Of a stretch of 34,474 nt of DNA, positions 1 through 34,474 are shown piece by piece. Each line of letters starts with the position of its first letter. Position 1 is the first letter of the stretch. The position numbers were made by a program, and so were the translations under genes. The DNA is from Candidatus Dojkabacteria bacterium. GTDB taxonomy: Bacteria; Patescibacteriota; Dojkabacteria; SC72. Where the stretch lies: the NCBI GenBank assembly GCA_028704525.1, contig JAQWFF010000002.1, forward strand, positions 1-34,474. Reading direction: 5' to 3'. The notes below the pieces were generated by a model. It made no database searches. It saw only the letters and a list, made by a program, of their open reading frames with translations, and was not told where the DNA came from.

Positions 1-171
1 ATAAATATATACCAGAAAAAGCTTGATCCTTTTGGGAATTTAGAGAAGGTCAAAGATATAGAGGGTGGAAAGATTAAGGTTAATGAATATATTTGTACAA
101 ATGAGGAAGATGACAATCATCATTATGCCAATACTAACTATTTGTTAGAACTAGTGAGGAATCTACTTTAG
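1..171 (+). CDS. 3' end of an unidentified CDS entering from the left edge (partial)
   Basis: Frame 1 is open from base 1 to TAG at 169-171 (ends ...LLELVRNLL*). No motif recognised. Absent from the ORF track because it has no start in the window. Confidence 0.3.
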   Translation: MNIYQKKLDPFGNLEKVKDIEGGKIKVNEYICTNEEDDNHHYANTNYLLELVRNLL

Positions 172-528
172 TACGGATATTTCCGTATCTCCTAATTTAA
201 CAAATTTTAATTCTTTTGGTTTGTTTTCCCATTCACATATTTCAAAAGGGATACCAATGTATTCACCTTGAAATTCTATTAACCTATCGTCCCACGTGTG
301 TATATCTGATGTTGTATATTCTTTTAATATCTCATATATCTTTGGGATATCTTCTTTAGACATAAAGAGATCTATATCATATGGATATATGTTAGAACCA
401 AGTATATACTTCAAGCCGGAAGCGGAAAGATAATATTGGATATTGTTTGTGTTTAATGTTTTTGTGATAAAAAACAAAGCATCTTTCCACTTTTCAATAT
501 TTTGTTTGTTTATCTTTTGATAGTCCAT
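163..528 (-). CDS. Small nucleotidyltransferase-fold protein (Lnu/ANT-like)
   Basis: 121 aa. The stretch YLSASGLKYILG...YPYDIDLF resembles the G[SG]...DxD minimal NTase motif. TATAAT lies 5 nt upstream of the ATG (TATAATCTAATATG on the minus strand). Confidence 0.5.
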   Translation of the reverse strand: MDYQKINKQNIEKWKDALFFITKTLNTNNIQYYLSASGLKYILGSNIYPYDIDLFMSKEDIPKIYEILKEYTTSDIHTWDDRLIEFQGEYIGIPFEICEWENKPKELKFVKLGDTEISVLK

Positions 529-606
529 ATTAGATTATATAACATATTTTGTAGATAGATTTTGTTGGAACAGATATGCTCAGGACCTTTTTATAGGCAG
601 ATTTGG

Positions 607-635
607 TTGACAATAAAGGCTTTTTTAACTATAAT
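607..635 (+). promoter_or_regulatory. Canonical sigma70-type promoter for the ABC importer operon
   Basis: TTGACA (607-612), exact 17-nt spacer, TATAAT (630-635). It lies 28 nt upstream of the ATG at 664. Confidence 0.7.
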
Positions 636-663
636 CGCTAATAACTTCTCAAAAACATTATAA

Positions 664-1680
664 ATGCAAAAAAGAATGTTAAATAAATCAACTAGCCTTT
701 ATTTGATAGCATCTGTTTTAATTTTAGTTGGTCTCTTTCTATTATGGATAACTAATCCAAATATCTTTTGGCGAGATGAAGTTCAAGAGGGTGTTATAGT
801 ATATAGTTGTGAGAATCCAATTACATTTGAATCTGTTCCTCAGAGGGCAATTTCTTTTGATACAAATATGACAGAGATGATGCTAGCCTTAAATCTGGAA
901 GACAATATGGTTGGTTATTGGGTTTCTGGTGTAGAAGTAGGGGATGAATTTAAAAATCAGATACAGAAAATTGAATTAGTTTCTGATATCCAGTGGCCTC
1001 CACCCTCAATGGAAGTTATCTTAAGTTTTGATCCTGATTTTGTATTTGGTGCTTGGGAATATAACTTCTCTGATGAAAGTGGTGTAACACCTGACAAACT
1101 TGAGCAAGCAGGTGTTAAGACATATGTTCTTACTGAATCTTGTGTCGCTGTGGGGGTTAAGCCAGATGAGTCTATTGAGAGTACTTATAATGACATTTTG
1201 AGCTTAGGAAAGATCTTTCAAGTAGAAGAGAGAGCTCAAATACTTGTGGATGAAATGAAAAATAACATAAAAGATATTCAGGATAAAATTGGAGAAGTCG
1301 AGAGACCTTTTCGAGGATTTTACTATGGAGGAGGTGCAGATGCTGCATTTACTGCAGGGAAATATGCTATGGTAACAAAAATGATGAATACAGTCGGTGC
1401 TGAAAATATTCTTGGTGATGTTGAGGATGATTGGATACCATCTGCTGGTTGGGAAACAATTATAGAGAAAGACCCTGAATTCATTATGATAGATGATACA
1501 CCATGGGAAAGTGCCCAAGCGCGTATAGATACCTTAGAATCTCTCCCTAAACTGGCGAGTATAACCGCAATTAAAGAGAAAAATTATATTATCTTTCCAT
1601 GGACATATATTCTTCCAGGTGTTCAAATGGATAATGGTATAACTAAGCTTGCCCAAGAGTTATATCCAGAGAAATTCTAA
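664..1680 (+). CDS. ABC transporter substrate-binding protein, iron-chelate/cobalamin (FecB/BtuF-like) type
   Basis: N-terminal hydrophobic anchor LYLIASVLILVGLFLLWI. First gene of an SBP-permease-ATPase operon with a FecCD-type permease directly downstream. Confidence 0.7.
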   Translation: MQKRMLNKSTSLYLIASVLILVGLFLLWITNPNIFWRDEVQEGVIVYSCENPITFESVPQRAISFDTNMTEMMLALNLEDNMVGYWVSGVEVGDEFKNQIQKIELVSDIQWPPPSMEVILSFDPDFVFGAWEYNFSDESGVTPDKLEQAGVKTYVLTESCVAVGVKPDESIESTYNDILSLGKIFQVEERAQILVDEMKNNIKDIQDKIGEVERPFRGFYYGGGADAAFTAGKYAMVTKMMNTVGAENILGDVEDDWIPSAGWETIIEKDPEFIMIDDTPWESAQARIDTLESLPKLASITAIKEKNYIIFPWTYILPGVQMDNGITKLAQELYPEKF

Positions 1681-1704
1681 AAATTAAACTTTTAGAGTTG
1701 AACA

Positions 1705-4530: not shown

Positions 4531-4640
4531 TGAGGGTTAATGCATCGGACTACAGGTAACCTAAGGGATTTGGTGAGACGTACATGTCTGGAACCTGTAT
4601 TAAATGAGAATGAGACAAATAAGACAGTATAAGAAAGGGG
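4531..4640 (-). repeat. Family-1 tRNA-3'-end-like intergenic repeat, copy A
   Basis: Plus-strand read: TGGTGAGACGTACATGTCTGGAACCTGTATTAAATGAGAATGAGACAAATAAGACAGTATAAGAAAGGGG. It aligns with copies D, E and F. Same orientation as tRNA-Asp. Confidence 0.7.
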
Positions 4641-4685
4641 AAATCATTTGCAAACCATAATAATAAATGAAATACTTTAATTATT

Positions 4686-6440
4686 ATGGATGGTAAAATA
4701 TCAGAATTAGCAACAGAATCTATTCAAACGAGTCCACAAATGTTAACTGATTATAAACTAGATAAGGTTGTTGAATTACATATAGACAATGTTGATTCTC
4801 AAAAAGTCATTGAGATAAAGGACATGTTGACTTCTGAGGTTCTTTTAGAGAATCGTAAGCACGCACATGGAATAAATGTTTTAGGGGAGGGTTCTGTTGG
4901 CTATGATTACATAGCCCCTTTAACAGAAACTAAGTTTCTTGAAGATCCAAAGCAAATATTGGCAAAATATAGTGAAGAACTCCAAGTGAAAGAAAAGGAT
5001 ATTCAGGAAATGTCTGAAGATGATGCAGCAAGAAGAATCAGAGAGGAAGTTGAAAAAAGAAATTCACAAAGTTCTCAAAAGCGTCGAGCTGAAACGAAGC
5101 TACTTCAAGAACTTGGAGTTGATGGTTCTATAAAAATTCATATGTGTAAAGGTCCTTTCGATGCTAGATATTTAGATACTTCTTCTTCAGATCCAAAACA
5201 AGAGGAAGCGTTTACCTATGTAAGAAATCAAATAGAAAAAGAAATTAGAGTTCAAATTGCACTAGGGCCTGGATTTACAGAATATACAAATGAAAATGGC
5301 GAGATAGTTACAAATACTACTACATATATTGATCCTGAGACAAAAGCTTTGGGAAAAAGTGAAACAGTCTTTCACATTCCATCAAAAACGGGAGAACTAG
5401 AAAAATGGGATAAATATTGTAGGTATGTTTCTTCAAGATGTTCAGGAGCAGAATTTGATATATGGATTGAACCGAATCATAATCTGGATGATAATGGACA
5501 TGGCAAGTTTGAACATAATACTGATTCTGGTAGGCATGGAGAGTTTTCTTCTGAAGGTAGAAAACCTGAAGAATATGCGCTGGCAGTTATCGTAGCTTCA
5601 AATGCTATTAAACAAGAGGCTCCTGATTCAAAGGTAGGAATTAATGTTGCTTTTGTAGATATTGAGTATATTGAAAAAACAATTGAAACAATCAAAATCC
5701 TTGGTTATGATCCAACAAAAATAATCGATTATGTTTCATTTAACCCTTATAGGTTTGGGAAAAAGCCAGAAATGTGTGGACCGAAATGGAATGAGAATTT
5801 AGAAGGATTTCGTGGGGATAGTGCACCAAAAGGCAGGTTTGATTGGAATACAGAGGGGTCGTATGAGGAAGAGGTTCTTGCTCTAATGGGAAGGGTATCA
5901 AGTTTAGGAATAAGAGATATTCGTACTAGTGAATCAGGGTATCCCGTTGGTGAACTAACACGTCAACAGCAAGCAGAATATAATTTGAGAGGATGGGTTT
6001 TGGATAGATATTTAGGATTACCTGAGAGTCCTTGGACCCTCACATCTGAGAGTGAGGATTTCTCATTTATTGATAAAGAAGGCAATAAGACTGAAACCTT
6101 CTATGCATATAAAAATTTCAATTCAATTTTCTCCTCATCTATAATCCCTAGCGGAGAAATACACACTAAGGACGAGAAGGTTATGTGTAAAGTTTTTGAA
6201 GATGAGTCAAATGGTAGTCAAATTCTTGTGGTATGGTCTCCGACAGGATATTACTCTAATAAAGGAGAGAATAATAGACCAGTAAAGATATCTGTGCCAC
6301 TCCTAGGGGAAAAATCAGTTGAAATAATTACAGGACTTAGTAAAGACACTCCAAATATTGAAAAAAGGGCCACTAATAAACTTGAAATTAATGTTCATGG
6401 AGAACCGGTTATTATAAGAATTAGTAAAGGAAGTAACTAA
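4686..6440 (+). CDS. Hypothetical protein, possibly a glycoside-hydrolase-like TIM barrel
   Basis: 584 aa with no signal peptide. The only hints are NVAFVDIEY and TSESGYPVGE, which resemble GH clan-A acid/base and nucleophile strands. Weak. Confidence 0.3.
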   Translation: MDGKISELATESIQTSPQMLTDYKLDKVVELHIDNVDSQKVIEIKDMLTSEVLLENRKHAHGINVLGEGSVGYDYIAPLTETKFLEDPKQILAKYSEELQVKEKDIQEMSEDDAARRIREEVEKRNSQSSQKRRAETKLLQELGVDGSIKIHMCKGPFDARYLDTSSSDPKQEEAFTYVRNQIEKEIRVQIALGPGFTEYTNENGEIVTNTTTYIDPETKALGKSETVFHIPSKTGELEKWDKYCRYVSSRCSGAEFDIWIEPNHNLDDNGHGKFEHNTDSGRHGEFSSEGRKPEEYALAVIVASNAIKQEAPDSKVGINVAFVDIEYIEKTIETIKILGYDPTKIIDYVSFNPYRFGKKPEMCGPKWNENLEGFRGDSAPKGRFDWNTEGSYEEEVLALMGRVSSLGIRDIRTSESGYPVGELTRQQQAEYNLRGWVLDRYLGLPESPWTLTSESEDFSFIDKEGNKTETFYAYKNFNSIFSSSIIPSGEIHTKDEKVMCKVFEDESNGSQILVVWSPTGYYSNKGENNRPVKISVPLLGEKSVEIITGLSKDTPNIEKRATNKLEINVHGEPVIIRISKGSN

Positions 6441-6454: not shown

Positions 6455-6514
6455 TTTTCAATATTTTGTTTATTTATCTTTTTATAGTCCATATTAGATT
6501 ATATAACATATTTT
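6455..6514 (-). pseudogene. Orphan copy of the promoter plus first 13 codons of the 163-528 nucleotidyltransferase gene
   Basis: 60 nt match 491-550 with 2 mismatches. On the minus strand it reads TATAATCTAAT-ATG GAC TAT AAA AAG ATA AAT AAA CAA AAT ATT GAA AAA and stops after 15 codons. Confidence 0.75.
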
Positions 6515-6562: not shown

Positions 6563-7516
6563 TTATCTCCACCAACTATTTTCTGGAATAGCCTCAGCTT
6601 CTATTTGAAATTTTTCTTTGAACCATTTAGCGATATCTTCCATTACGGGGTATTCTGAACCAGCATGGGATAGACCTATTAATGTCATCTTGGTTTGAGG
6701 ATAAAATTCTTGCAACGCTTTGTTTTCTCTCTCCCCCCTTTCCCCTGCTATTCTACATGTGGCTTGTCCAGTTATCACTACTTCTGTACCAAATCCCTCT
6801 GCAGGTTGTATGTCTCTTACATTCCCTCCCCCACCAGGTATAATTGCTACCTTTGTTATCTCCCTATCTAAATCTTTATTTCCCTTAATATCAATATAAT
6901 CTAGATTAGGAATCTCTAATCGCTCAATTAATTCTTGTACTGTTTGTTTGGGTACTTCACATATCCTAGCAGCATATCCATGAGCATATTCCATATATTG
7001 ATCAATCTGCTTTGCTCCTATCATCTTTATTAGTGACTCATTTGTTCCTAGTCCCGAGATAGATCCTGCATCTAATGGAGCATGACAGGTATATATAGAC
7101 AACCCCTTCTCTTTTATTCTCTTAATAATTTCTGGGTTTATAGGTATGAATCCTTTTCCCCACTCTTTGCCTTCTCTTGGATCTCCACACTCCATCTGTA
7201 CAGGATGGTGTGCGAATATCATGTCTCCTTTGGAAGATTTCTCAAGGACATCTTCTAACATGTAATCGTTTAAAAAACTTAGTAACCAAATTTTCCCAAC
7301 GGGTAAATCCTCTTCTGCCGTTATCATTAATCCATTAAAATACTGTGTAAATTCTGGTTCAAATTCTGATTTCCAATCATAGTCAATAGGGTCGTATACC
7401 ATAGGAACAAAACGACTCATTGCAGGATCTACTGTCTCTTTAACCCTAAATTCTGTATCTAATTTTTCAGCTAAAGTCTCTATTGTATATTCTTTCATAT
7501 CCTTTTGTTCAATCAT
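6563..7516 (-). CDS. NIF3 (YbgI/DUF34)-family dinuclear metal centre protein
   Basis: DMIFAHHPV and IYTCHAPLD metal-ligand motifs, plus GLSHAGSE near the C-terminus. 317 aa. Confidence 0.7.
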   Translation of the reverse strand: MIEQKDMKEYTIETLAEKLDTEFRVKETVDPAMSRFVPMVYDPIDYDWKSEFEPEFTQYFNGLMITAEEDLPVGKIWLLSFLNDYMLEDVLEKSSKGDMIFAHHPVQMECGDPREGKEWGKGFIPINPEIIKRIKEKGLSIYTCHAPLDAGSISGLGTNESLIKMIGAKQIDQYMEYAHGYAARICEVPKQTVQELIERLEIPNLDYIDIKGNKDLDREITKVAIIPGGGGNVRDIQPAEGFGTEVVITGQATCRIAGERGERENKALQEFYPQTKMTLIGLSHAGSEYPVMEDIAKWFKEKFQIEAEAIPENSWWR

Positions 7517-7590
7517 TTATATTAATGAAATGAAATTATCCATATAAATTATACAATATAGAAATGGTAATGGGGAGAAATAAACACCAA

Positions 7591-7629
7591 GAACCTATGT
7601 AGATTGAAAATAAGACAGTATAAAAAAGG
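7591..7629 (-). repeat. Family-1 repeat, copy B (promoter-like half only)
   Basis: GAACCTATGTAGATTGAAAATAAGACAGTATAAAAAAGG aligns with the distal half of copies D and E. Confidence 0.55.
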
Positions 7630-7674
7630 CGTCCTAGTGCCCAAGCCTAATTTTAGTAAAGAGTAATCCCTGTT

Positions 7675-8337: not shown

Positions 8338-8471
8338 ATCCTAAGTAATTCAAATTATCATATAGTAATTATTATATAGCCGTTCTGGATGAAAAACAAT
8401 TCTTGATTCATCCAATAGAATTCTTGGATAGCAATTTAGATTAAAGTTCTATTTATCTACAAAAGATATAG

Positions 8472-8522
8472 TTGGACATATACGTAATGAGAATGGGACA
8501 AAAGAGATAGTATAAGAAAAGG
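8472..8522 (-). repeat. Family-1 repeat, copy C (internally deleted)
   Basis: TTGGACATATACGTAATGAGAATGGGACAAAAGAGATAGTATAAGAAAAGG. The TGTATAATCTAAT-ATG of the next gene follows. Confidence 0.6.
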
Positions 8523-8544
8523 ACATTATTTTGTATAATCTAAT

Positions 8545-9642: not shown

Positions 9643-9726
9643 GGGTCTTGTTGCAACCTTTAAAGAATGGTTGGACATACACGTCTGGTACCTAAAATGA
9701 GACAAATAAGACAGTATAAAAAAGGG
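9643..9726 (-). repeat. Family-1 repeat, copy D
   Basis: GGGTCTTGTTGCAACCTTTAAAGAATGGTTGGACATACACGTCTGGTACCTAAAATGAGACAAATAAGACAGTATAAAAAAGGG. The first 25 nt match the 3' flank of tRNA-Asp (GGGTCTTGTCGCAACCTTGAAAGAATGG). Confidence 0.75.
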
Positions 9727-9798
9727 ATAGGTTTTCTTATTCGGGAATAAATATGCTAAAATTAAATTGTTTATTACTTAATATCAGAATGTGTCTGT

Positions 9799-13885: not shown

Positions 13886-13887
13886 AT

Positions 13888-15670: not shown

Positions 15671-15678
15671 AGAACTCT

Positions 15679-22827: not shown

Positions 22828-22830
22828 TAT

Positions 22831-24674: not shown

Positions 24675-24704
24675 CTAAATAAGAAGGTATAGCTTGGAAC
24701 TTAA

Positions 24705-25103: not shown

Positions 25104-25212
25104 ATTCTGATTATATCAAAGATGGGAGGCATCTTTTAAAATTTCTACCTAGAGCATATAATAAGCTATGTTACCTAAACCTAATATTTAGGCATGGTGA
25201 TGAAAAATAAAT

Positions 25213-25336
25213 CCAGATCAGTGTGTTAGGCGGTCTTCCGTCTCTCAATCACTGATCTGGTTACTAGGGGAAACCTTAGTAGAGGATACAGCAATGTACC
25301 TCTGTGAGCGGGAGACCACTTGTCTCAAAAACTCAC
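25213..25336 (+). ncRNA. Candidate structured RNA (four contiguous hairpins, two with GNRA loops)
   Basis: P1: 25213-25223 pairs with 25250-25260 (11 bp), with an inner 6-bp stem 25228-25233/25238-25243. P2: 25263-25280, 7 bp with a GAAA loop. P3: 25281-25303, 5+4 bp with a GCAA loop. P4: 25304-25336, 5-bp outer and 5-bp inner stems. The segment looks richer in G+C than the flanking intergenic DNA. TATAAT lies at 25157-25162 upstream. Confidence 0.5.
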
Positions 25337-25366
25337 AAGAATCAAATAACTTGATCAGAAGTTAGG

Positions 25367-26131
25367 ATGGAAAAGAATTCTTTTATCCCTTTTACAATTA
25401 TATCGTCAAAACTTTTTAGAATGGAACATGAATTGTTTCCATCTAACACCTCGTTCATTAAGAAAATTCTCCTGGCAATAGGGATCCCTCGTATTGATGT
25501 CCCTTCTTATTCAGCAAAGATTAAGGACTTGTATGCAAAGTTTGAAGTAATCCGGGACAAAACAACTGAAGCGGAGAGGGAAGCGATGAGTGAATTTACA
25601 GAGAAGGATGAGTTTATAAACAAGATGGATGAATGTATTATTGCTTTTTCTAAGGTTGTTGAAAGTTTAGAGAGGAAATTAAAAAATAACAAATCTTTAA
25701 AATTTGGAGAATTTGAGGAGTTAATAAATAACTATAAAGAGAAGAAGTTGGACCTGCTACAAGTTACCGAGAAGATCGTTACAGCAACAAGAAAAACTGA
25801 GGAAGAAACATGGAGTAATTTACATAAAAGTCTTGAAAAATGGGAGAATGAAGGAGATGACAAAAAAGGCCTTGATACAAGAGAAAAGAACCATGTTATT
25901 TCAAAGCAAACCGAAGATGGGCTATGGAAAGTCTTAATTAAGAATGATAGCGAAGAACTGGTATTTAAAAAGGCTAAAAAACTAGTAATAGAAAGAGGAT
26001 CAGCCACACCGAGTTTTATAAGTAGAACATTGCAGATAGGTCAGAATCAGGCTGCTAGAATATTCATGCGATTGCAAGATGAGAGGATTATAAGTAAAGA
26101 TTATCCTTATGAAGTATTAAAAAGTAACTAA
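25367..26131 (+). CDS. Coiled-coil protein with a C-terminal FtsK-gamma-like winged-helix DNA-binding domain
   Basis: The C-terminus KKLVIERGSATPSFISRTLQIGQNQAARIFMRLQDERIISK matches the FtsK gamma pattern (..aS.S.lQR.l.IGynRAar....Le..Giv). Confidence 0.5.
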   Translation: MEKNSFIPFTIISSKLFRMEHELFPSNTSFIKKILLAIGIPRIDVPSYSAKIKDLYAKFEVIRDKTTEAEREAMSEFTEKDEFINKMDECIIAFSKVVESLERKLKNNKSLKFGEFEELINNYKEKKLDLLQVTEKIVTATRKTEEETWSNLHKSLEKWENEGDDKKGLDTREKNHVISKQTEDGLWKVLIKNDSEELVFKKAKKLVIERGSATPSFISRTLQIGQNQAARIFMRLQDERIISKDYPYEVLKSN

Positions 26132-26268
26132 TTCTCTTTGCAACTGGGGGAGATGCTTACTATTCAGTTACCCATCATACATTTATTGGAGATTAAGGCA
26201 GTAGGGTTTGTCTAGGACTGTTTAAAGGTGTATTTACGAAGGCACTTATAGTGTGTATATAATATGAT

Positions 26269-26721
26269 ATGACAAAGAATAGGAGATTAACAAAGAAGCA
26301 AGAAATGTTTTGTAAGTTGTATGCTACAGATAGAGATTATTTCGGGAATGGTACACAAGCATATGCAGAAGCATATAACATTGATCTAACACAAAGTGGA
26401 AAGAAAAGTTCTGTAAGAACAAATGCATCTAGATTGCTAACATATGATCACATAATTAGGCGAATTGATAAGTTACTGGAACTGGGAGGACTGAGTGACA
26501 ACTCCGTTGACAAGGAGCTTTTGTTTTTAATAAAACAGAATGCTAATTTCAATGTTAAGCTAGGAGCAATTAGGGAATATAACTCTTTAAGAAAGCGGAT
26601 CATACACAAGGAAGAGGTTCATGTTAAATCGGATGTTAATCTAACAAGTTTCTTAAAAGAATTGAAGGATAAGTCATCGGAACAATTGATTGCTATCAAT
26701 CAGAGGATGTATGGTAAGTAA
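26269..26721 (+). CDS. Phage-type small terminase subunit (Terminase_2-like)
   Basis: LTKKQEMFCKLYA....GNGTQAYAEAYNID....NASRLL. TATAAT lies 5 nt upstream of the ATG. No large terminase follows. Confidence 0.55.
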   Translation: MTKNRRLTKKQEMFCKLYATDRDYFGNGTQAYAEAYNIDLTQSGKKSSVRTNASRLLTYDHIIRRIDKLLELGGLSDNSVDKELLFLIKQNANFNVKLGAIREYNSLRKRIIHKEEVHVKSDVNLTSFLKELKDKSSEQLIAINQRMYGK

Positions 26722-26768
26722 GGGATTTTCTTGAAGTGACCAATTTAAACTTATATAATAAGCTCAAT

Positions 26769-28490
26769 ATGAAAGAAGTATTTTGTCCTCATTGTACAAA
26801 AGAGTTAGTTTTAGATAGTAACGACTTGGCTCTTGAAGTGATAAGATGTCCATCCTGTGGCTGGTTCTTTCTTTTATCAGAAGCAGAGAATGGAGATTCG
26901 GGAGATGATTTGTTATTGATAAACATTGAAACTAAATACAACCAAGATGGATCAGTTAAGGCAAGGGCTGGATATAAAGCAAATATCGGTAGTAGACCTC
27001 TTGACCGAGTCGTAAATATATCTGCAGACAGCAAATACGAATTATCAGAAAAGATAAGAGAAACAGCATATGATCTCAAGGAACAGGCAAAAGCTGAGAA
27101 GTCGTCATTGGGTATTGAAGAACAGATGACAATGTTACAAGGTATTTTGGAACATGGCATTAAAACAAAGATAGATTTTAAGTGGGAAGATGAAAAGAGA
27201 AGGGATAAGTTTGAGAAGAAGAAACCTAGTTTTGACAAAACAAAGCCTAAAAAGGAAGATGTTTATCGTTCCTTATGGATATTTGAGAATATATTCAAAA
27301 AATATGCTGCTAAGAAAAACAAGGAGTACGAACAGAGGTTGAAAGAGCTAACAAAAGATTGGGAGAAGGAGAAAAAGGAATTTGAGAAAAGTTTGGCAGA
27401 ATGGGAAAAGGAGAAAGAGAGTTTTGAAAAAGAGAAAGAGGAATTTAACAAGAAAATTGACGAGAAGATAGAAAAACAGAAAAAAGGGAAGAAGGAGATT
27501 GTAGAGGAGTATTTTGAGAAGATTCTTGCATTATCAGAATATCCTACTAACTTCCCTCATAAATTTGATCTTGGATATAAAGCAGAGGAAAAGATGCTCG
27601 TTATTGAATATGTTCTTCCTGAGTACGAAGTTATTCCCAAATATCAAAGAGAAGAATATAAGAGAACAACAGGAGAAAGGAAGAAAGTACCTCTTTCAGA
27701 ATCTGCAAGAGAAAAGTTATATAACGAAGTTCTTTATTCTCTACCATTAAGAACACTACACGAGATATTTGAAAATGATAAATATGAGAATATAGATAGT
27801 GTTGTGTTTAATGGTTGGGTAGACACTCTTGATAAAGCAAAGGGAAAGAAAAAGCATATATGTATATTAACAGTTCATGCAAAGAAGGAAGACTTTGCAG
27901 AGATTGATTTAAGAAAAGTAGAACCAAGAGCTTGCTTCAACGGACTGAAAGGTGTTGGTAGTAGCAAATTAAGTAGTCTTGCTCCTGTTGCTCCAATTTT
28001 AAAACTTAATAAAGAGGATAAGAGGTTTATTAGTGCTGAAGAGGTCTTAAATGATGTTGATAGCTCTGTTAATATTGCCTCTATGGATTGGGAAGACTTT
28101 GAACATCTTGTAAGAGAAGTTTTTGAACAGGAGTTTGCAAAATCAGGGATGGAGGTTAAGGTAACTCAGTCAAGTAGAGATTTGGGTGTTGATGCTGTAG
28201 CTTTTGATCCAGATCCTTTTAGAGGAGGGAAAATTATTATTCAAGCTAAGCGATATACAAATACTGTGAAGGTAGAGTCTGTCAGAGCCTTGTATGGCAT
28301 TATGCAGGATGAAGGTGCTATGAAGGGTATTATTGTTACTACATCTGATTATGGTCCCGATGCTTATAAATTTGCACAGGGTAAGCCAATTACTTTGATA
28401 AATGGGAATAACCTGTTGTCAATGTTAGAGAAGTATGGGCATAAAGCAAGGATAGATATAAAAGAAGCTAAGAAACTTTTACAGGAGTAA
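26769..28490 (+). CDS. Zinc-ribbon / coiled-coil / Mrr-type restriction endonuclease-domain fusion protein
   Basis: N-terminal CPHC...CPSC, a central KE-rich coiled coil, and a C-terminal Mrr_cat-like core (DWEDFEHLVREVF...GVDAVAF...IIIQAKRY...GIIVTTSDYG). Start set at ATG 26769, 9 nt after TATAAT, not the track GTG at 26736. Confidence 0.65.
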   Translation: MKEVFCPHCTKELVLDSNDLALEVIRCPSCGWFFLLSEAENGDSGDDLLLINIETKYNQDGSVKARAGYKANIGSRPLDRVVNISADSKYELSEKIRETAYDLKEQAKAEKSSLGIEEQMTMLQGILEHGIKTKIDFKWEDEKRRDKFEKKKPSFDKTKPKKEDVYRSLWIFENIFKKYAAKKNKEYEQRLKELTKDWEKEKKEFEKSLAEWEKEKESFEKEKEEFNKKIDEKIEKQKKGKKEIVEEYFEKILALSEYPTNFPHKFDLGYKAEEKMLVIEYVLPEYEVIPKYQREEYKRTTGERKKVPLSESAREKLYNEVLYSLPLRTLHEIFENDKYENIDSVVFNGWVDTLDKAKGKKKHICILTVHAKKEDFAEIDLRKVEPRACFNGLKGVGSSKLSSLAPVAPILKLNKEDKRFISAEEVLNDVDSSVNIASMDWEDFEHLVREVFEQEFAKSGMEVKVTQSSRDLGVDAVAFDPDPFRGGKIIIQAKRYTNTVKVESVRALYGIMQDEGAMKGIIVTTSDYGPDAYKFAQGKPITLINGNNLLSMLEKYGHKARIDIKEAKKLLQE

Positions 28491-28503
28491 CGGCTATCGG
28501 TTC

Positions 28504-28944
28504 TTAAAAGTGTACAATATCCTGTGCTTTAATTAGGGAGTTTTCTTTATCTTGGATCATCTCTCTACAAGACATTAAAATTTCTTTAACCTCTTTAGCA
28601 TTTGGTTTATTGCTCAGTCTTTCCATTACTTCTTTTAGTAACTTCTCATCAGGAATCCAGAGAGTTAGCTCAAAACTTAGTTGATTCAAAGATTTATACC
28701 TTATATATTTATCATTTTTGTCTTCACCTTCCTTCTTTGTTATCCATGTAGCAAATAATTCAGCAATCTTAGAAGATTGCTCTTTCCTAAGATATAGGTT
28801 TTTGTAATCTTCTAAATTCTTGTCGTACTGGTTTCTGACTGAGCTTTCTAATTCTGCCTTTATCCAGAGGATAAATAGAAACTGCAACAGAGAAATAACT
28901 AGCAATATTATATCCATAAAAAATAAATAATAAGTTAATTTCAA
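28504..28944 (-). CDS. Membrane-anchored hypothetical protein
   Basis: N-terminal TM (YYLFFMDIILLVISLLQFLFILWI) followed by a helical soluble part. Confidence 0.45.
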   Translation of the reverse strand: MKLTYYLFFMDIILLVISLLQFLFILWIKAELESSVRNQYDKNLEDYKNLYLRKEQSSKIAELFATWITKKEGEDKNDKYIRYKSLNQLSFELTLWIPDEKLLKEVMERLSNKPNAKEVKEILMSCREMIQDKENSLIKAQDIVHF

Positions 28945-29001
28945 TATTATATAATAATTGTAAAACTAAATTGTCATGAGAGAATTGTTGGTAAAACCTA
29001 A

Positions 29002-29030
29002 TTGACAGAATATTTTTGCTGATATATAAT
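29002..29030 (+). promoter_or_regulatory. Canonical sigma70-type promoter
   Basis: TTGACA (29002-29007), exact 17-nt spacer, TATAAT (29025-29030). Confidence 0.7.
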
Positions 29031-29074
29031 CCAGTATTAAATCCTCCTTATGGCCTCGGCGATATGGAGTCAAC

Positions 29075-29098
29075 GGGGGCTTCGGCCCCTTGTTTTTT
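29075..29098 (+). terminator. Intrinsic terminator hairpin with a UUCG loop and a U-tract, inside the leader of the NYN gene
   Basis: GGGGC (29076-29080), UUCG, GCCCC (29085-29089), then TTGTTTTTT. It lies about 40 nt downstream of the predicted TSS and 16 nt upstream of ATG 29115. Confidence 0.65.
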
Positions 29099-29114
29099 AT
29101 TTCACTAAAAAGAG

Positions 29115-29648
29115 ATGAATAGAGTTAAAGTATTCATAGATAACAGTAATGTTTACAAATGTCTTTTAGAACAGAGCATTGTAGATCCTAAGTGGAAAAA
29201 ACAATATGATCCGTTATTTTTATCTCAAATACTTGTAGGGGATAGGGACTTGGTAGGGGTAAATTTCTACTGTACAAATCCGCCCCCTTCTCTGAGAAAG
29301 GCTAATCCAAAGGCATTTGCTTCTCAGGAAAGTTACTATAGCAGAGTAGAAAATTTAGAAAAGGTAATTATACATTTTGGCAATCTTACAACTAATGACG
29401 GTAAGTATTTTGAAAAGAATCTTGATACACAGATGGTCGTAGATATTATGGAAGGAGCTTATCAAGATCATTTTGATACACTAATTCTAGTCTCTAGTGA
29501 TGGAGACTTTGAGAGTACGATAAGAAAAGTGAAAGAGATAGGTAAGAGAGTTGAGATTCTTTTCTTTAGGGGGCATGTTTCGCAAAATTTGAAAAAAGTC
29601 AGCGATGTTAATAGGAGAGCAAGAAGGTCGTATTTCAAGCAATTATAA
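29115..29648 (+). CDS. NYN (LabA-like) domain protein, putative RNase
   Basis: VFIDNSNVY, LDTQMVVDIM and LILVSSDGDFESTIRKVKEIGKRVEIL fit the NYN/PIN-like acidic motifs. Confidence 0.65.
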   Translation: MNRVKVFIDNSNVYKCLLEQSIVDPKWKKQYDPLFLSQILVGDRDLVGVNFYCTNPPPSLRKANPKAFASQESYYSRVENLEKVIIHFGNLTTNDGKYFEKNLDTQMVVDIMEGAYQDHFDTLILVSSDGDFESTIRKVKEIGKRVEILFFRGHVSQNLKKVSDVNRRARRSYFKQL

Positions 29649-29673
29649 AAGTCTTGTTCTGAGAGAAATTGAA

Positions 29674-29709
29674 GTTTTAAGTTCCAAGCTATCCAACACA
29701 TTCCACCAT
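29674..29709 (+). repeat. Family-2 tRNA-Val-3'-end-like repeat, copy R0
   Basis: GTTTTAAGTTCCAAGCTATCCAACACATTCCACCAT. Same orientation as tRNA-Val. It aligns with R1 (TTTTAAGTTCCATGCATTTCAATATCGTCCACCAT). Confidence 0.65.
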
Positions 29710-30266: not shown

Positions 30267-30323
30267 TAGTTTGAGAATATATCAAACTATCCAAGTCTTG
30301 ATGAAATTCCCATATAATAAATA

Positions 30324-31370
30324 ATGACTAAACAAGAAAAACTTTCTATTGTTTTTGATGAGATATTTCATTTAAATGTTTGTGGGGAAGATAAAGAAAA
30401 AGTTAGGCGAGATATTTCCAAAACAAATATAGATTCCGAAATTATGATTATTGCAGAAGCTATGGCTCCTGAACAAGTGAGACTCTCGGGAGTAAATTAT
30501 TTTTACAAAGATGGAAGAATAGGAAATACAGGAAAATCTTTAGAAAAGTTTTTAAATAAATTTAACTATACTGTTTGTACAGATAAACCGAATTGTATAT
30601 ATCACACAGAAATAGTACATAACTTCCCTGGATATGAAATAAAAAATGGAAAGAAAAGTATTAAAAGACCAAGTAAAGAAGAAATACGAGTATCAATTAA
30701 AAGTAATATCTTAAAAAAAGAGATAGCTATTATTAAACCTAAGTTAATACTTTTAATGGGAGATACAGCATATAAATCATTTTATAAGTACTTTCTGGAT
30801 ATACAATCTTACAATAATCTTACAAAAGAAATAGATTATATTTCTAAGACTAAGAAGTTTAAGAGACATCAAAATATCCCTGTAATACCAATACAGCATA
30901 GTTCTGGTGCTAATCCAAGATTTCAAGAAATGTTTAAAAACACAGAATTGATAGATTTCATAAACGAAATTCTTAATAACCCAATGGATCTTAAACTTTT
31001 GAAAGTAGCTATAAAGAATTCTTGGTGTAAAGATACTGTTTGTCCATCTGTTACGGAAATGTGGAATAGGTCAAATAAAACAATTGGTCAATGTGCTGTA
31101 ACTGCACTGCTAGTATATAAATATCTAGGAGGAAAGATATACAAAGGAGATATTTTAGAAAAAGGATATTCTCATTATTGGAATGTTCTTCCAAATGGTA
31201 AAAAAGTTGATTTAACGAAATCACAATTTGGTTATGAAATGGTCATTCTTAATAATATTAAAGAAAAGAAACCCGAAGAAATGCTAAAAGATGAAGAGCT
31301 ATTAAATAGATATAAAATCCTTGAAAGGCAGGTTGGTTTCCAATTGAAAAATTTAAAGAAAGTAATATAA
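30324..31370 (+). CDS. Uracil-DNA-glycosylase-superfamily domain fused to a C-terminal YunG-like domain
   Basis: Motif-A-like IMIIAEAMAPEQ and motif-B-like IQHSSGANPRF. The C-terminal part has IGQCAVTALLVYKYLGG...HYWNVLPNGKKVDLTKSQFG. TATAAT lies 5 nt upstream of the ATG. Confidence 0.45.
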   Translation: MTKQEKLSIVFDEIFHLNVCGEDKEKVRRDISKTNIDSEIMIIAEAMAPEQVRLSGVNYFYKDGRIGNTGKSLEKFLNKFNYTVCTDKPNCIYHTEIVHNFPGYEIKNGKKSIKRPSKEEIRVSIKSNILKKEIAIIKPKLILLMGDTAYKSFYKYFLDIQSYNNLTKEIDYISKTKKFKRHQNIPVIPIQHSSGANPRFQEMFKNTELIDFINEILNNPMDLKLLKVAIKNSWCKDTVCPSVTEMWNRSNKTIGQCAVTALLVYKYLGGKIYKGDILEKGYSHYWNVLPNGKKVDLTKSQFGYEMVILNNIKEKKPEEMLKDEELLNRYKILERQVGFQLKNLKKVI

Positions 31371-31380
31371 AGAAATATTG

Positions 31381-31415
31381 TTTTTAAGTTCCATGCATTT
31401 CAATATCGTCCACCA
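31381..31415 (+). repeat. Family-2 repeat, copy R1
   Basis: TTTTTAAGTTCCATGCATTTCAATATCGTCCACCA. TCGTCCACCAT is identical to tRNA-Val 22897-22907 plus one base. It abuts the stop codon of the 31416-32054 gene. Confidence 0.75.
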
Positions 31416-32054
31416 TTACGTATTCAAGATCTTCCTTATTCTATCTACTGCTAAAGACATATTTCTTCTACCTTGTCCTACAGGATAATATGTAGGATAT
31501 ATCTCATACCCATTTAATATTTCTTTCTGGTCATCAACATAGTCACTAACAGAAATACTTCTATCCAAAAGAATAGATGATACCTGATTACCAAATGTAA
31601 CTATCTTTTTAGGATTAACAATGTCAATTTCTTTATACATTAAATCTAAATATTCTTTGAAAACAGAATTGTTAAGAGGTCTTGCATCAATTTGAGTACA
31701 TTTTGCAAGATTAGTTATAAATACAGAATGATTTTCTATATCTGTATATACATCGTTAGCAAATTCATAGTCCCATTCCTCAGATTTTAAAGTCTTTATT
31801 TTTAAATATATATCTGATTGTAATAATCCAATATCCCTATAAATATCCCATACTTGTTTTGTACCAATCCAAGGAGCTCTTAATCCTCTCCAAGAACAGG
31901 TACTAGAAATATTCCTACCTGTAGGATTCATAAAGATAAACATTATTTCAGGATCATTTATACAACCAGCTCCGTATATTGAAGAAAGAGTAGGGTCTCC
32001 ATATTTTAATTGTAGTTTATCGTACTCCTTATGTAATTGAATAACTTGTTGCAT
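31416..32054 (-). CDS. Divergent uracil-DNA-glycosylase-superfamily protein
   Basis: IMFIFMNPTGRN at the motif-A position, KIVTFGNQV, and YPTYYPVGQG at the motif-B position. 212 aa. TATAAT lies 9 nt upstream of the ATG. Confidence 0.4.
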   Translation of the reverse strand: MQQVIQLHKEYDKLQLKYGDPTLSSIYGAGCINDPEIMFIFMNPTGRNISSTCSWRGLRAPWIGTKQVWDIYRDIGLLQSDIYLKIKTLKSEEWDYEFANDVYTDIENHSVFITNLAKCTQIDARPLNNSVFKEYLDLMYKEIDIVNPKKIVTFGNQVSSILLDRSISVSDYVDDQKEILNGYEIYPTYYPVGQGRRNMSLAVDRIRKILNT

Positions 32055-32120
32055 AGATTAGAAATTATACTCTAAACAGATTCTGCTTTTAAGTTCGATG
32101 CACTTTAATATCGTCCACCA
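32055..32120 (+). repeat. Family-2 repeat, copy R2 (best-preserved pseudo tRNA-Val 3' end plus promoter)
   Basis: Minus-strand read: TGGTGGACGATATTAAAGTGCATCGAACTTAAAAGCAGAATCTGTTTAGAGTATAATTTCTAATCT-ATG. The tRNA-Val reverse complement reads TGGTGGACGACATAGGGATCGAACCTATG. Confidence 0.8.
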
Positions 32121-32921
32121 TTAGATTCCTCCAAACAACTTTTGCATATCCTCATCATTCAAATTCCTTATATTGTTAATAATAGACTTCTCCCCCTCTT
32201 TCAAAATTACTACATCTCCATTGAAATCTATATATTTAAAATTACTTTTATTATGAGAAACTTTGGGAGTAATCTCAATGTTTCTAAAGTTTTTAATCTT
32301 TTTTATTGAATCAGTGAAGGTCTTTTTTGAAATACCTAATAGATTCTTAATACCTTTTGATTTTTCACTTAATGATACGAACTGATGTAACTCCCATCTT
32401 TGTATATTAGGATATTGGGTAATTTCTTCATAGATATTATTCAAATCATCAATATTATTCTTATGAACTACAGTATTAATAGTTATTTTAAAATCATTAT
32501 TATTAAGAATCTTCAGGATAGTTTTAGTTTGTTTTAAAATATCTTCCCAGTTAGTTCTAAATTCTTCTGCAACTTTCTGAGAACTTCCATCAAAAGGAAT
32601 TCCAATTAAGGAAATCTTTTTAGCCATTTGAGCTTTGATAAATTTGTCGCTAAATTCTTTCCTCAAGAGTGGAATTCCTGTTGTATCCAGATGAATATTG
32701 AAATCAAGAGAGAAGAATATATTTATAATATCAAGAATATCTTCTCTAATTAGAGGGTCTCCACCACTTAGAGTTATCCCCAAGTATCCTGTGTTTTTAA
32801 GAGTAGAAGCTAATTTGGAAATTTCCTCTAGAGTTAGTTCTTTCCCCTCTCTTTTATCTAGATAACAGCCGTTACAGTTACCAAAGCAGTTCCCTGAAAC
32901 TAGAAAACAGATTTTCTTCAT
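32121..32921 (-). CDS. Radical SAM protein (single-gene module)
   Basis: NCFGNCNGCY (CX3CX2C) and LSGGDPLI. 266 aa. Confidence 0.75.
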   Translation of the reverse strand: MKKICFLVSGNCFGNCNGCYLDKREGKELTLEEISKLASTLKNTGYLGITLSGGDPLIREDILDIINIFFSLDFNIHLDTTGIPLLRKEFSDKFIKAQMAKKISLIGIPFDGSSQKVAEEFRTNWEDILKQTKTILKILNNNDFKITINTVVHKNNIDDLNNIYEEITQYPNIQRWELHQFVSLSEKSKGIKNLLGISKKTFTDSIKKIKNFRNIEITPKVSHNKSNFKYIDFNGDVVILKEGEKSIINNIRNLNDEDMQKLFGGI

Positions 32922-32987
32922 AGCTAAAGATTATATATTAAAACAATCTTACTTTTAAGTTATATGTATCTCAATCCTTTCCACCAT
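32922..32987 (+). repeat. Family-2 repeat, copy R3
   Basis: Minus-strand read: ATGGTGGAAAGGATTGAGATACATATAACTTAAAAGTAAGATTGTTTTAATATATAATCTTTAGCT-ATG. The promoter half is near-identical to R4. Confidence 0.75.
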
Positions 32988-32992
32988 TAGTA

Positions 32993-33547
32993 TTATAGAA
33001 GTTTCATTGCTGCGTCATATTTATCTTGTATTAACTCTTTCCCAATTGATGTCAACTTGTTATAACTCCTCTTTAATTTCTCTTTAACAAAGGTATTTGC
33101 ATCTTCTGTTTCCAGACCTCTTACAATAATAGCAAGGTAAAAAAGAGAAGAGATAGTATTAAAATGAGACATAGCATCAGCATCTGCTACACACTCAGCT
33201 TCAATACTTTCTCTAGGAATATCTTTACTACCCCTATGCGCATAAATACAATGTTTAACTTTCGCTATCCTCTCTTTAGGGTAGTTATGTTTCTTTAAAA
33301 ACTCTTCTGCATATTTCTGGCCAATAACATGATGTCTTTCATAAGCTCCTTTAATACTAGCAATATCATGTAACCAAGCTGATACAAGAACTATTTCCCT
33401 ATCAGCATTTCTCATAGTAGCTAATTGTCCTGCAAACATAACAACGGATTTAAAATGATGATTATAAGCATTCATACCAAAAGGATTAGTTTTCTTTTTA
33501 CACTCTCTTAGAACATATTCTTGTGCTTGTTTTACAATATCATTCAT
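32993..33547 (-). CDS. HD-domain metal-dependent phosphohydrolase
   Basis: NHHFKSV...AWLHDIA...HRG...DADAM, a H...HD...D pattern. 184 aa. Confidence 0.75.
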   Translation of the reverse strand: MNDIVKQAQEYVLRECKKKTNPFGMNAYNHHFKSVVMFAGQLATMRNADREIVLVSAWLHDIASIKGAYERHHVIGQKYAEEFLKKHNYPKERIAKVKHCIYAHRGSKDIPRESIEAECVADADAMSHFNTISSLFYLAIIVRGLETEDANTFVKEKLKRSYNKLTSIGKELIQDKYDAAMKLL

Positions 33548-33612
33548 ATCTAAAGATTATATATTAAAACAATCTTACTTTTAAGTTCTGTGCACTTTAG
33601 TATCGTCCACCA
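33548..33612 (+). repeat. Family-2 repeat, copy R4 (overlaps the 3' end of the next ORF)
   Basis: Minus-strand read: TGGTGGACGATACTAAAGTGCACAGAACTTAAAAGTAAGATTGTTTTAATATATAATCTTTAGAT-ATG. Confidence 0.8.
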
Positions 33613-34381
33613 ATATATTTAATCTCCTGAATTCTATTCGGTTGTTTGTATACAGTATATTCCAATCGGTTCCAATATCTACCTTAAATTCAAACCTTGG
33701 TATATTCTCCTCTACTCTCATATTATCTATCCTTACTCCATTTGGAATTATACTAAATACCGATTGAGTTATTTTTAATTGATCACCATCTTTCAATACC
33801 ATAGCCATATGGGTATATGAACCTTCTTTGTTTTTCAAAAGTAATAGATCTAGATTAGAAAGAGAGTCTAAATCGGTAATAATAGTACTTGCAGTTCCAG
33901 AGAAAATTTCCACAGATGCTCTAGAAGCTCCTGTTCTATCTTCTTCTTGCCATGCCAAAGATTTTATAAATTGGTCTTCCATATTGATAGATTTAAAACC
34001 TTCAAGTAGGACATTGTATATATACCCAGAGCAATCTATACCGAGACCAAAGAGCTTCATAGATTCTCGTATACCATCGGGAGAAGCATTCTGTATATTA
34101 AAATCTCTAACTTTAGATATTTCTAAAAACGCAGACTTTAATTCTTCTGGTGTTCCTTTCCCTCTATACCAACCATACTTGCTTTTGTTCCCTTTATATA
34201 ATTTATGTACTTCTTTAATTCTTTCTTCATCTATACCAGATTGTTTCATTAGAGAAAGAAACTCTTGTTCTACAAAGTTTATTGCATATGGACATGATAT
34301 CTTTTGGTTTGATATATCTAAATTAAGATATCTATCAATATTCTCTCTAACATATTTATTTAGTTTTTCTTTTTGAATCAT
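33581..34381 (-). CDS. NlpC/P60-like (papain-fold) cysteine peptidase-like protein, no signal peptide
   Basis: LGIDCSGYIYNVL (the Cys nucleophile context) and LDLLLLKNKEGSYTHMAMVL (the His context). The last 10 codons are encoded by repeat R4. Confidence 0.5.
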   Translation of the reverse strand: MIQKEKLNKYVRENIDRYLNLDISNQKISCPYAINFVEQEFLSLMKQSGIDEERIKEVHKLYKGNKSKYGWYRGKGTPEELKSAFLEISKVRDFNIQNASPDGIRESMKLFGLGIDCSGYIYNVLLEGFKSINMEDQFIKSLAWQEEDRTGASRASVEIFSGTASTIITDLDSLSNLDLLLLKNKEGSYTHMAMVLKDGDQLKITQSVFSIIPNGVRIDNMRVEENIPRFEFKVDIGTDWNILYTNNRIEFRRLNILVDDTKVHRT

Positions 34382-34474
34382 AGTTTAAAGTATATCATCT
34401 CAAGTTTCCTGTTTATAGATTGAATTAAGTATTAGATTTAATCTTTATATTTAAATCTTCTCCCTTGAGAAAGA

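Follow-up and report, generated by a model that had tools for sequence, protein, structure and literature searches.

Two ladders of small gene cassettes at the 3' ends of tRNA genes in a Dojkabacteria genome, probably built by site-specific recombination

We analysed a contig of Candidatus Dojkabacteria (JAQWFF010000002.1, assembly GCA_028704525.1), whose 34,474 nucleotides are hereafter called the window, and in particular two families of repeats that extend in opposite directions from two of its tRNA genes. On the left, the anchor is tRNA-Asp(gtc) (17874-17950, minus strand; Rfam tRNA score of 72 bits), whose CCA end faces left. On the right, tRNA-Leu(gag) (22742-22827, plus strand) lies just upstream of the second anchor, tRNA-Val(tac) (22831-22907, plus strand; also recovered with Rfam). 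The tRNA genes were called with ARAGORN, RNA families with Rfam, and protein domains with Pfam, and the other loci and contigs compared with the window are designated by L-numbers (L002, L008, L093, and so on). Between tRNA-Asp and the tRNA-Leu/tRNA-Val pair lie a GGDEF gene, trxA, tsaC-tsaE, tsaD, and eno. The relatives of this TsaD are 58-73% identical to it and come from genomes labelled Candidatus Dojkabacteria or, in some cases, "uncultured Saccharibacteria", in which the order tRNA-Asp ... tsaD ... tRNA-Leu/tRNA-Val is kept. The initial annotation had called the stretch from 17.95 to 22.9 kb a housekeeping core; it is a conserved syntenic block in the related genomes, but as a core it is merely what lies between two integration hot spots.

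Family 1 (TGGCGGGACATACACGTCTGGAACCTA...) is found on the plus strand only and to the left of tRNA-Asp only, with copies starting at 4571, 7571 (weak, 8/27 mismatches), 8469 (truncated), 9668, 15603, and 16719. Family 2 (TGGTGGACGATATTAAAGTGCATCGAACTTAAAAG) is found on the minus strand only and to the right of tRNA-Val only, at 29674-29708, 31381-31415, 32086-32120, 32952-32986, and 33578-33612. The scan of the whole window revealed neither family on the opposite strand or on the side of the other tRNA, and both are where the initial annotation had placed them. The 27-mer of family 1 has three matches with at most three mismatches in the window and none in shuffled sequences, and the pattern TGGTGG-N19-AACTTAAAA has five exact matches, again against none in shuffles. 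The first bases of each family, TGGCGG in family 1 and TGGTGGACGA in family 2, are those at the 3' end of its own tRNA in reverse complement. The pseudo acceptor and T-arm followed by GAAC[CT]TAAAA that had been described for the repeats are also present, as a T-arm-like stretch that ends in GGAAC[CT]TAAAA in both families. From junction to junction, the distances are 3000, 898, 1199, 5935, 1116, and 1155 nt on the Asp side and 6801, 1707, 705, 866, and 626 nt on the Val side.

The 3' end of tRNA-Val is shared with a recombinase gene. This gene (22893-24674, minus strand) encodes an apparently intact large serine recombinase (LSR) of 593 aa, as judged from Pfam and its translation, with the RVS catalytic motif, a Resolvase domain (PF00239, 2.9e-32), a Recombinase domain (PF07508, 6.4e-18), and a weak Zn_ribbon_recom domain (PF13408). 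It matches the TP901-1 integrase and other serine recombinases in the PDB and is approximately 30% identical to phage serine integrases and other characterised integrases. Its last five codons plus the stop (WWTT*) are the reverse complement of the tRNA-Val 3' end. Its homologues on seven other Dojkabacteria contigs, L002, L004, L006, L130, L131, and L133 among them, are 56-73% identical to it, and their genes, too, terminate within a tRNA-Val (gac or tac). In the three loci whose fetched flank included the far end of the element (L002, L004, and L133), this end consists of TGGTGG, an acceptor, and a pseudo-T-arm ending in GCATGGAACTTAAAA; the acceptor bases match the local tRNA, and the pseudo-T-arm is constant. 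These homologues, with their ends in tRNA-Val and the same pseudo-T-arm at their far ends, tie the serine recombinase to family 2, a link for which the initial annotation had proposed a phylogenetic survey.

The DNA around the core has the layout of an attP, with two inverted half-sites and a short core. The P' motif AAGTTACAGGC (22921-22931, minus strand) is inverted relative to the arm motif of family 2 and lies 24 nt from TGGTGG; because the LSR gene runs across the crossover, this motif is in its last codons. The opposite half-site, AAGTTCCAAGC (P, in reverse complement), is in the repeat copy, as the P arms hold AAGTTCCATGC-like 11-mers 24 nt from the TGGTGG hexamer. The inverted 11-mers AAGTT[CA]CA[TG]GC thereby stand 24 nt on either side of the core, in a site of approximately 54 bp, and the motifs are kept in 6 P' and 12 P arms; the P' motif is conserved in L002, L004, L006, L130, L131, and L133. 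The T-loop of the tRNA carries a weaker copy of the motif (AGGTTCGAnCC; AGGTTCGATCC in the window's tRNA-Val) at 20 nt from the core, 4 bp nearer than P and P'. In serine integrases, the zinc-ribbon-domain motif is approximately 5 bp nearer the centre in attB than in attP (PMC3783163). The present sites agree with this rule; the shift is 4 bp, not 5, and the B' arm is not conserved. The rule also explains why family 2, compared with the tRNA, seems to have an "insertion" of 4 nt. The core common to the sites is TGG(A/G)CGA. The assignment of the family-2 repeat as a P-type half-site of the LSR attachment site, with the tRNA T-loop as the B-type half-site, is well supported by these sequence comparisons.

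An extra copy of the half-site motif (AAGTTCCAAGC; 24692-24702, minus strand) is located approximately 20 nt upstream of the LSR start codon. The motif at this position (TTAAGTTCCA[AT]GC) is conserved in L002, L004, and L130 and present as a variant in L006, i.e., in five elements including that of the window, and 16 of its 17 bases match the P arm of the element. Its recurrence ahead of the LSR gene fits the idea of a protein-binding site, and it may serve in autoregulation. More distant relatives of the LSR (44% identity, on other contigs of the Candidate Phyla Radiation [CPR]) end in tRNA-Lys(ctt) and tRNA-Val(gac), and one that is 53% identical ends next to yet another tRNA, which indicates that the recombinase family as a whole targets tRNA 3' ends. 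The far ends of two of the distant elements (L126 and L128) were not located. The viral contigs gave no match to either repeat family or to the LSR.

The LSR is part of an integrative element of 6.8 kb (22908-29708, minus strand) that is bounded by the tRNA end and by the family-2 copy at 29674-29708. This copy, of subtype 2b (TGGTGGAATGTGTTGGATAGCTTGGAACTTAAAAC; minus strand), provides the P arm at the element's far end, and the same subtype is found at L004:1086 and in L010. Besides the LSR, the element contains a conserved partner open reading frame (ORF) of 132 aa that is a candidate directionality factor, a LOOT RNA, FtsK-gamma and TerS-like genes, an Mrr type IV restriction enzyme, an ORF of 146 aa, and an NYN gene; homologous elements are present in L002, L004, and L133. 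Beyond it, the ladder consists of recombinase-less units of one or two genes, all bounded by copies on the minus strand. The copy at 31381-31415 (subtype 2a) travels with a UDG-YunG cassette (30301-31415). A second 2a copy, together with its TTAAAA-17-TATAAT sequence (32064-32120), precedes a UDG-like gene (31416-32054). A copy with a diverged arm and the same promoter-like sequence (32930-32986) precedes a viperin-like radical SAM gene (32121-32921). The last, again with TTAAAA-17-TATAAT (33556-33612), ends 8 nt ahead of the ATG of an HD-domain gene (32993-33547). In 11 of the 12 family-2 junctions, the end or promoter of an unrelated gene is set precisely against the core, and the distal side holds no recombinase remnant or P' motif. 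At position ~14665 of L010 (minus strand), the distal side of a family-2 junction (gttttgggaattttgatggaTGGTGG) resembles the 3' end of the LSR gene (gttacaggcagaaaaagatggaTGGTGG); there, a cassette may have entered beside a now-decayed LSR element, in which case attL-like sites would be usable as targets.

The initial annotation had also seen 17 nt and a -10 box behind the arms of both families. This is the case for three of the five family-2 copies (TTAAAA-17-TATAAT at 33584, 32958, and 32092, each 8 nt ahead of an ATG), but in family 1 it applies essentially only to the short variant of the 9668 type. The other family-1 copies have indels in the promoter-like part and the hexamer TATAAA, without the final T, and the promoter scan called no family-1 copy. 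Cassette genes begin 5-8 nt past the TATAAT box, e.g., TATAATCTTTAGATATG and TATAATAAATAATG (33547, 32921, 32054, and 30324; L008:15510), which suggests leaderless transcripts in this organism. In some cassettes, the TTAAAA of the arm would double as the -35 box of a leaderless-type promoter.

Comparisons between species suggest that the units, mostly of 0.6-1.9 kb, move as such. Between the UDG-YunG cassette and L008:15487-16601, the identity is 89% at the nucleotide and 86% at the amino-acid level; for core proteins of the two genomes, it is 72% (TsaD) and 60% (enolase). The similarity stops exactly at the TGGTGG end (31415/16601) and, in L008, begins 8 nt past the neighbouring repeat; the neighbours of the cassette differ. 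On the Asp side, a cassette that we call C1 (9643-14413; GNAT, LD-carboxypeptidase, AlaX-like, methyltransferase, and two dCTP-deaminase-like genes) is 86% identical in nucleotides to its counterpart in L093, again with different neighbours on both sides, and the match of L102 to C1 begins at 9667, one base ahead of the TGG at 9668. A kinase-like cassette shared with L010 is 78% identical in amino acids (core proteins, 69%). When all family-1 loci are compared, shared segments tend to end within approximately 100 nt of a junction, and the module types described below are shuffled relative to C1. Cassette genes often end with a TAA directly against TGGTGG, which argues for precise recombination and not for random decay. 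We infer from these boundaries that the arm moves together with the cassette, on the side facing the tRNA, that the crossover takes place in the core, and that the small units were integrated as such instead of being left over from random decay.

The tRNA genes themselves differ between empty and occupied sites. The four empty tRNA-Val(tac) genes (L009, L011, L012, and L017) are all 74 nt long and lack an encoded CCA, and the four occupied ones (in the window, with its CCA at 22905-22907, and in L008, L010, and L131) are all 77 nt long and have it. Similarly, L072 has a tRNA-Asp with neither CCA nor flanking motif. The incoming DNA thus appears to supply the CCA end in both families, turning the gene into a CCA-encoding one. 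We considered L030, L038, and L075 as a source of strain-level variation in the arrays and discarded them; they are overlapping pieces of one genome and therefore uninformative in this respect.

Family 1 is widespread. It was found in 102 metagenome stretches (digesters, sludge), with at most five copies per contig, and in seven species-representative genomes; neighbouring copies are mostly 743-1900 nt apart, and core and arm are almost identical in other species (L012, L015, L016, and L013). Its junctions in the window, all on the plus strand, vary in completeness. The outermost (TGGTGAGACGTACATGTCTGGAACCTG...; 4571-4645) has an RrnaAD-family rRNA adenine dimethylase gene and an iron ABC transporter as left neighbours. 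The next is degenerate (7571-7645), with a weak arm and a conserved AAAATAAGACAGTATAAAAAAGG block downstream, and the third (TAGTTGGACATATACG...; 8469-8537) is truncated by the deletion of the GGAACC part. The junction at 9644-9741, which starts C1, comprises a left motif (GGGTCTTGTTGCAACC...), the core TGGTTG, the arm, and the promoter-like block. The one at 15420-15677 carries a full module of ~190 nt, followed by the TGGCGG core at 15603 and the arm. The junction at 16695-16783 (left motif, core at 16719, arm) separates a viperin-like cassette (15679-16602, minus strand) from a radical SAM cassette (16804-17694, plus strand). Lastly, module and left motif abut the true 3' end of tRNA-Asp (17714-17873) and form the tRNA-proximal end of the newest cassette.

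The left motif, of 25 nt (GGGTCTTGTTGGAAC...), precedes the core in most family-1 junctions, often with the ~190-nt module, and both also abut the true tRNA-Asp in most species. Ladders of this kind occur at other tRNA genes as well: family-1 junctions with the left motif also abut tRNA-Ser(gct) and tRNA-Ser(gga), which share only the CCGCCA end with tRNA-Asp. The module (..CTACCTTCGAACCGAGGGGT..TTTCATCCACCAGG..CTTTTTAAGG..ATAGTGGACGGGTCTTGTTGGAAC..; 15420-15602 and 17714-17873 in the window) is found at many cassette boundaries and is conserved across L009, L012, L013, L015, L016, and many metagenome loci, with at least three subtypes of the left motif. It is not a gene, its reading frames differing between copies; it has no Rfam match, and its consensus folds weakly on both strands. 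It could be a tRNA trailer or terminator or hold accessory sites of the attachment site. A second type of arm follows module and TGGCGG in some loci (TGGCGGA(A/G)G(G/A)TATGGAATGAT(A/T)(T/C)CCGAA; L093:~6020, L060, and L010:6823), so that family 1 comprises two or more types of arm; family 2 likewise has several (2a, 2b, and 2c). The cargo of family 1 is diverse (sortases, methyltransferases, NUDIX, dehydrogenases, D-Ala-D-Ala ligases, Fic, and helix-turn-helix proteins).

The recombinase searches around family 1 covered 363 kb of family-1 loci, where tblastn gave no match to the LSR. Pfam likewise revealed no recombinase for family 1 among the window ORFs, the tRNA-Asp islands of GTDB genomes, the recurrent clusters, 150 family-1 ORFs, and the tRNA-adjacent ORFs. 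We examined an ORF of 584 aa (4686-6440) as a possible hidden recombinase and rejected it, as it has no match in Pfam, NCBIfam, PADLOC, or the PDB and no relatives in family-1 loci.

How far the two families represent one design, as the initial annotation proposed, can be assessed from their sequences. The global alignment of the two consensuses is no better than that of shuffled sequences (p = 0.14), and only the TGGYGG core and a block of ~10-12 nt, GGAACYTAAA(A), are similar. In 893 kb, GGAACYTAAA stands behind a TGGYKG core in 55 of its 64 occurrences and is thus nearly junction-specific, in both families. Core and block are 4 nt further apart in family 2 than in family 1, and this spacing is strictly coupled to the core (TGGCGG+19 in family 1, TGGTGG+23 in family 2); except for one point variant, no hybrid junction combines the core of one family with the spacing of the other. 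The arm of family 1 (AGGTTCCAGAC) scores above the 99th percentile of the background on the half-site matrix of family 2, at the tRNA-type distance. The families have in common the anchor at a tRNA 3' end, the outward growth, the element-supplied CCA, one strong arm per junction, and the GGAACYTAAA block. The proposal of one related mechanism at two tRNAs therefore holds for the logic and the shared block, but the systems are distinct, and there is no evidence that one enzyme serves both. Because of the coupling of core and spacing, the direct orientation of the flanking motifs, the lack of an offset, the extra module, and the lack of linkage to the LSR, we treat family 1 as a sister system. 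As for its enzyme, a serine recombinase that is encoded elsewhere and has been re-targeted seems to us about as probable as an enzyme of unrelated origin.

We consider it likely that each ladder is a tandem array of small integrative cassettes, which were added successively by site-specific recombination at a tRNA 3' end; the observation that the arrays start there and grow outward is supported in this sense. A circular cassette would carry an attP-like site made of a tRNA-mimicking arm (pseudo acceptor and T-arm), a core identical to the last bases of the tRNA, and its own CCA. Crossover in the acceptor end would rebuild the tRNA with an encoded CCA and move the mimic arm to the far side of the cassette. 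The next cassette would again enter at the tRNA, pushing the older ones outward. Each boundary would keep an arm derived from the element, which would account for the closer likeness of the repeats to one another than to the tRNA. In family 2, the enzyme would be the LSR of the tRNA-proximal 6.8-kb element, and the recombinase-less cassettes, which have the P arm only, would be moved either in trans or through accretion with this element. Family 1 would be the sister system for tRNAs ending in CCGCCA (Asp and Ser), with its recombinase encoded elsewhere.

Several results weigh against this scheme. We saw neither an excision product nor a circular cassette, nor any population with both empty and filled versions of a site, and no circular contigs. 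A second inverted half-site in the recombinase-less family-2 junctions scores at background level. Canonical serine integrases bind both half-sites, and attL-like targets are not used without a directionality factor; trans-mobilisation through a single half-site would therefore need relaxed rules. For family 1, the search of the 363 kb yielded no recombinase of any type, the left arms score at background for an inverted half-site, the flanking motifs are direct and not inverted, only the right arm resembles the half-site motif of the LSR, and there is no attP/attB offset, the arm being at the tRNA-type distance. For these reasons, the mechanism, well supported from sequence for family 2, is purely inferred for family 1. 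The promoter-like matches are not above those of shuffles in such AT-rich DNA, and the genes behind family-1 arms favour the promoter direction by 44:30 only.

Three other explanations deserve consideration, as does the possibility of a dispersed repeat derived from a tRNA (akin to miniature inverted-repeat transposable elements or short interspersed nuclear elements), which we rejected since the copies have one orientation only and stand in ladders downstream of tRNAs that share their core. The ladders could be graveyards of successive full-size integrative elements, like tandem tRNA islands or remnants of tycheposons; each cassette would then be the rest of an element that had lost its recombinase-proximal part by decay, and would never have been independently mobile. 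In the window, the sole LSR-bearing element does adjoin the tRNA, with recombinase-less units beyond it; the LSR genes of L131 and L133 are truncated or frameshifted; the left arm of the L010 junction looks like a decayed LSR 3' end; and L009:3298 is a classic partial copy of the true end of tRNA-Asp. Decay would have to explain, however, why the distal sides of 11 of the 12 family-2 junctions are so clean, why the 363 kb of family-1 arrays hold not one fragment of a recombinase, why single-gene units of 0.6-1.9 kb recur with intact arms, and why identical cassettes stand beside different neighbours in different species. We regard this explanation as unlikely. The arms could also be relics of integration that now act as portable homology or expression modules, especially in family 1, with cassettes being swapped by homologous recombination over junctions of 60-280 nt after DNA uptake. 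The junctions are 85-100% conserved over about 60 nt in organisms whose core proteins are ~60% identical, the module types are shuffled relative to C1, and family 1 has no linked recombinase. The ends of the shared segments spread about 80 nt to either side of the junctions instead of falling on one base, a spread that is expected anyway because the junction itself is conserved. Yet the two best-resolved boundaries lie at the core, the one exactly (31415/16601) and the other with an offset of a single base (9667, ahead of the TGG), and such exchange leaves unexplained the mimicry of the tRNA, the supply of CCA, and the use of one arm at three tRNAs that share only CCGCCA. We regard this explanation, too, as quite improbable.

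The third explanation concerns the relation between the families, whose likeness could be convergence on the universal T-loop and acceptor and on AT-rich promoter-like DNA, with two unrelated enzymes at work, e.g., a tyrosine recombinase in family 1. The alignment that does not exceed shuffles, the strictly family-specific core and spacing, the LSR that is never linked to family 1, the direct flanking motifs of family 1, and its long module of a kind typical of complex att sites all agree with it. The fit of the family-1 arm to the family-2 half-site matrix at exactly the tRNA-type distance speaks, in contrast, against it, as do the GGAACYTAAA block, which exceeds what the T-loop (TCGAACC) explains, and the demonstrable re-targeting of the LSR family to several tRNAs. 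We regard convergence as a serious contender, if somewhat less than probable.

Read as products of site-specific recombination, the ladders resemble several known systems without coinciding with any. The recombinase of family 2 shares with the large serine integrases of A118/LI, Bxb1, phiC31, and TP901-1 the resolvase, recombinase, and zinc-ribbon domains, the attP of ~54 bp with inverted outer motifs and a short core, and a host-site motif that is about half a helical turn nearer the centre (4 bp here, 5 bp for the LI integrase; PMC3783163). It differs in its tRNA 3'-end target, the non-conserved B' arm, the recombinase-less units with one recognisable half-site, the LSR gene that itself crosses the crossover, and an identity of ~30% to characterised enzymes. 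In the composite islands of the staphylococcal cassette chromosome (SCC), Ccr serine recombinases act at the 3' end of rlmH/orfX, where ccr-less pseudo-SCC units are also found. These islands likewise line up a recombinase element and recombinase-less units behind a housekeeping gene, at its 3' end, with direct repeats of the integration-site sequence bounding the units and accessory, defence, or resistance cargo; their anchor is a protein gene and their repeat a core of ~18 nt, whereas here the anchor is a tRNA, the units are much smaller and often have a single gene, and the arm is 35-100 nt long with promoter-like sequence. Cis-mobilisable elements (CIME) of streptococci are recombinase-less, att-flanked units beside a recombinase-bearing integrative and conjugative element (ICE), and could excise together with it; the present ladders have no conjugation genes, far smaller units, and a serine instead of a tyrosine recombinase.

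The tycheposons of Prochlorococcus integrate at tRNAs and accrete in tandem, leaving partial tRNA copies, with PICI-like versions (after phage-inducible chromosomal islands) that carry terS and a minority that uses large serine recombinases (bioRxiv 10.1101/2020.12.28.424599). The ladders resemble them in the integration at tRNAs, in the newer elements that push older ones into the island, and in terS, and differ from them in having a conserved mimic instead of a partial tRNA copy, the 4-nt offset in family 2, single-gene units, and a CPR host. What the repeats have in common with the tRNA is limited to 6-10 nt and the T-loop, the rest being a conserved sequence of their own; L009 has the one true partial copy. 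No replication gene, and hence no tycheposon replication module (primase, helicase, or polymerase), was found in the LSR element. With integrons, the ladders share ordered arrays of mostly single-gene cassettes with a recombination site between them, one fixed entry end, and diverse cargo; they differ in the tRNA anchor, the lack of an attI, the presence of both gene orientations (44:30), and cassettes that often have their own promoter. Searches for an IntI tyrosine recombinase gave no Phage_integrase match in the window ORFs or among the families matched by at least two of the 150 family-1 ORFs. Consensus folding of 10 junctions on both strands gave about -4 kcal/mol and short helices only, i.e., no attC-like hairpins. 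Together with the mixed orientations and own promoters, these results indicate that the ladders are not integrons. They differ from the known accretion at tRNAs, in SCC, and in CIME by their single-gene scale, the conserved mimic arm, the readable P/B offset, the LSR gene that crosses its own site, and the spread across a class of CPR bacteria. The literature search returned no prior description of such ladders, which is weak evidence of novelty given its incomplete coverage.

Other features of the window and of related loci were recorded alongside. The LOOT RNA of the LSR element (Rfam RF03000; 25172-25300, plus strand) has counterparts at L002:8042-8174, L133:8736-8866, L126:4995-5125, and L128:3929-4048. 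It is thus present in five of the nine tRNA-targeting LSR elements examined, at 55-88 bits, above the gathering score, and always on the strand opposite the LSR, even where identity between the LSRs is down to ~44%. The LOOT RNA seems to belong to the regular equipment of these elements, which gives an orphan motif a genomic home. Each ladder carries one viperin-like radical SAM gene (15679-16602 and 32121-32921, both on the minus strand; PADLOC pVip, 1e-24 and 4e-21), and the two proteins are only 22% identical to one another. Further cargo of defence type includes the Mrr type IV restriction enzyme (26736-28490), the tandem pair of dCTP-deaminase-like genes (13370-14409), the HD and NYN genes, and two UDG-family genes. 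In L093, a tRNA-Tyr without flanking motif (7168-7254) and a GC-richer non-coding stretch of ~400 nt (7255-7660) lie between family-1 junctions and may be cargo or a second anchor. Finally, a direct repeat of 60 nt that is unrelated to both ladder families occurs in two copies, 97% identical and 6 kb apart, one at the 5' end of an ORF at 163-528 (491-550) and the other between the 584-aa ORF and a NIF3-like gene (6455-6514).

These arrays bear on how CPR bacteria (Patescibacteria), whose genomes are tiny, acquire genes, a process that is little understood. The two hot spots carry about 27 kb of swappable cargo within 34 kb. The recombinases described here point to tRNA-directed serine integrases as a family whose site rules are compact and readable; such enzymes could serve engineering. 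If the cassettes are mobilised as proposed, the junction found in more than 100 metagenome stretches would be a sequence-defined marker of the flexible genome of the class. More tentatively, Dojkabacteria, and perhaps other CPR bacteria, may practise an integron-like capture of genes at tRNA 3' ends, in which single half-sites that mimic the tRNA, bring their own CCA, and often provide a leaderless promoter would let an LSR act in trans on single-gene cassettes, with family 1 as a re-targeted branch. Such a system would be a natural form of cassette capture by a serine recombinase, and thereby a counterpart to integrons, and much of the gene flux and of the defence-gene turnover in these reduced genomes would pass through it.

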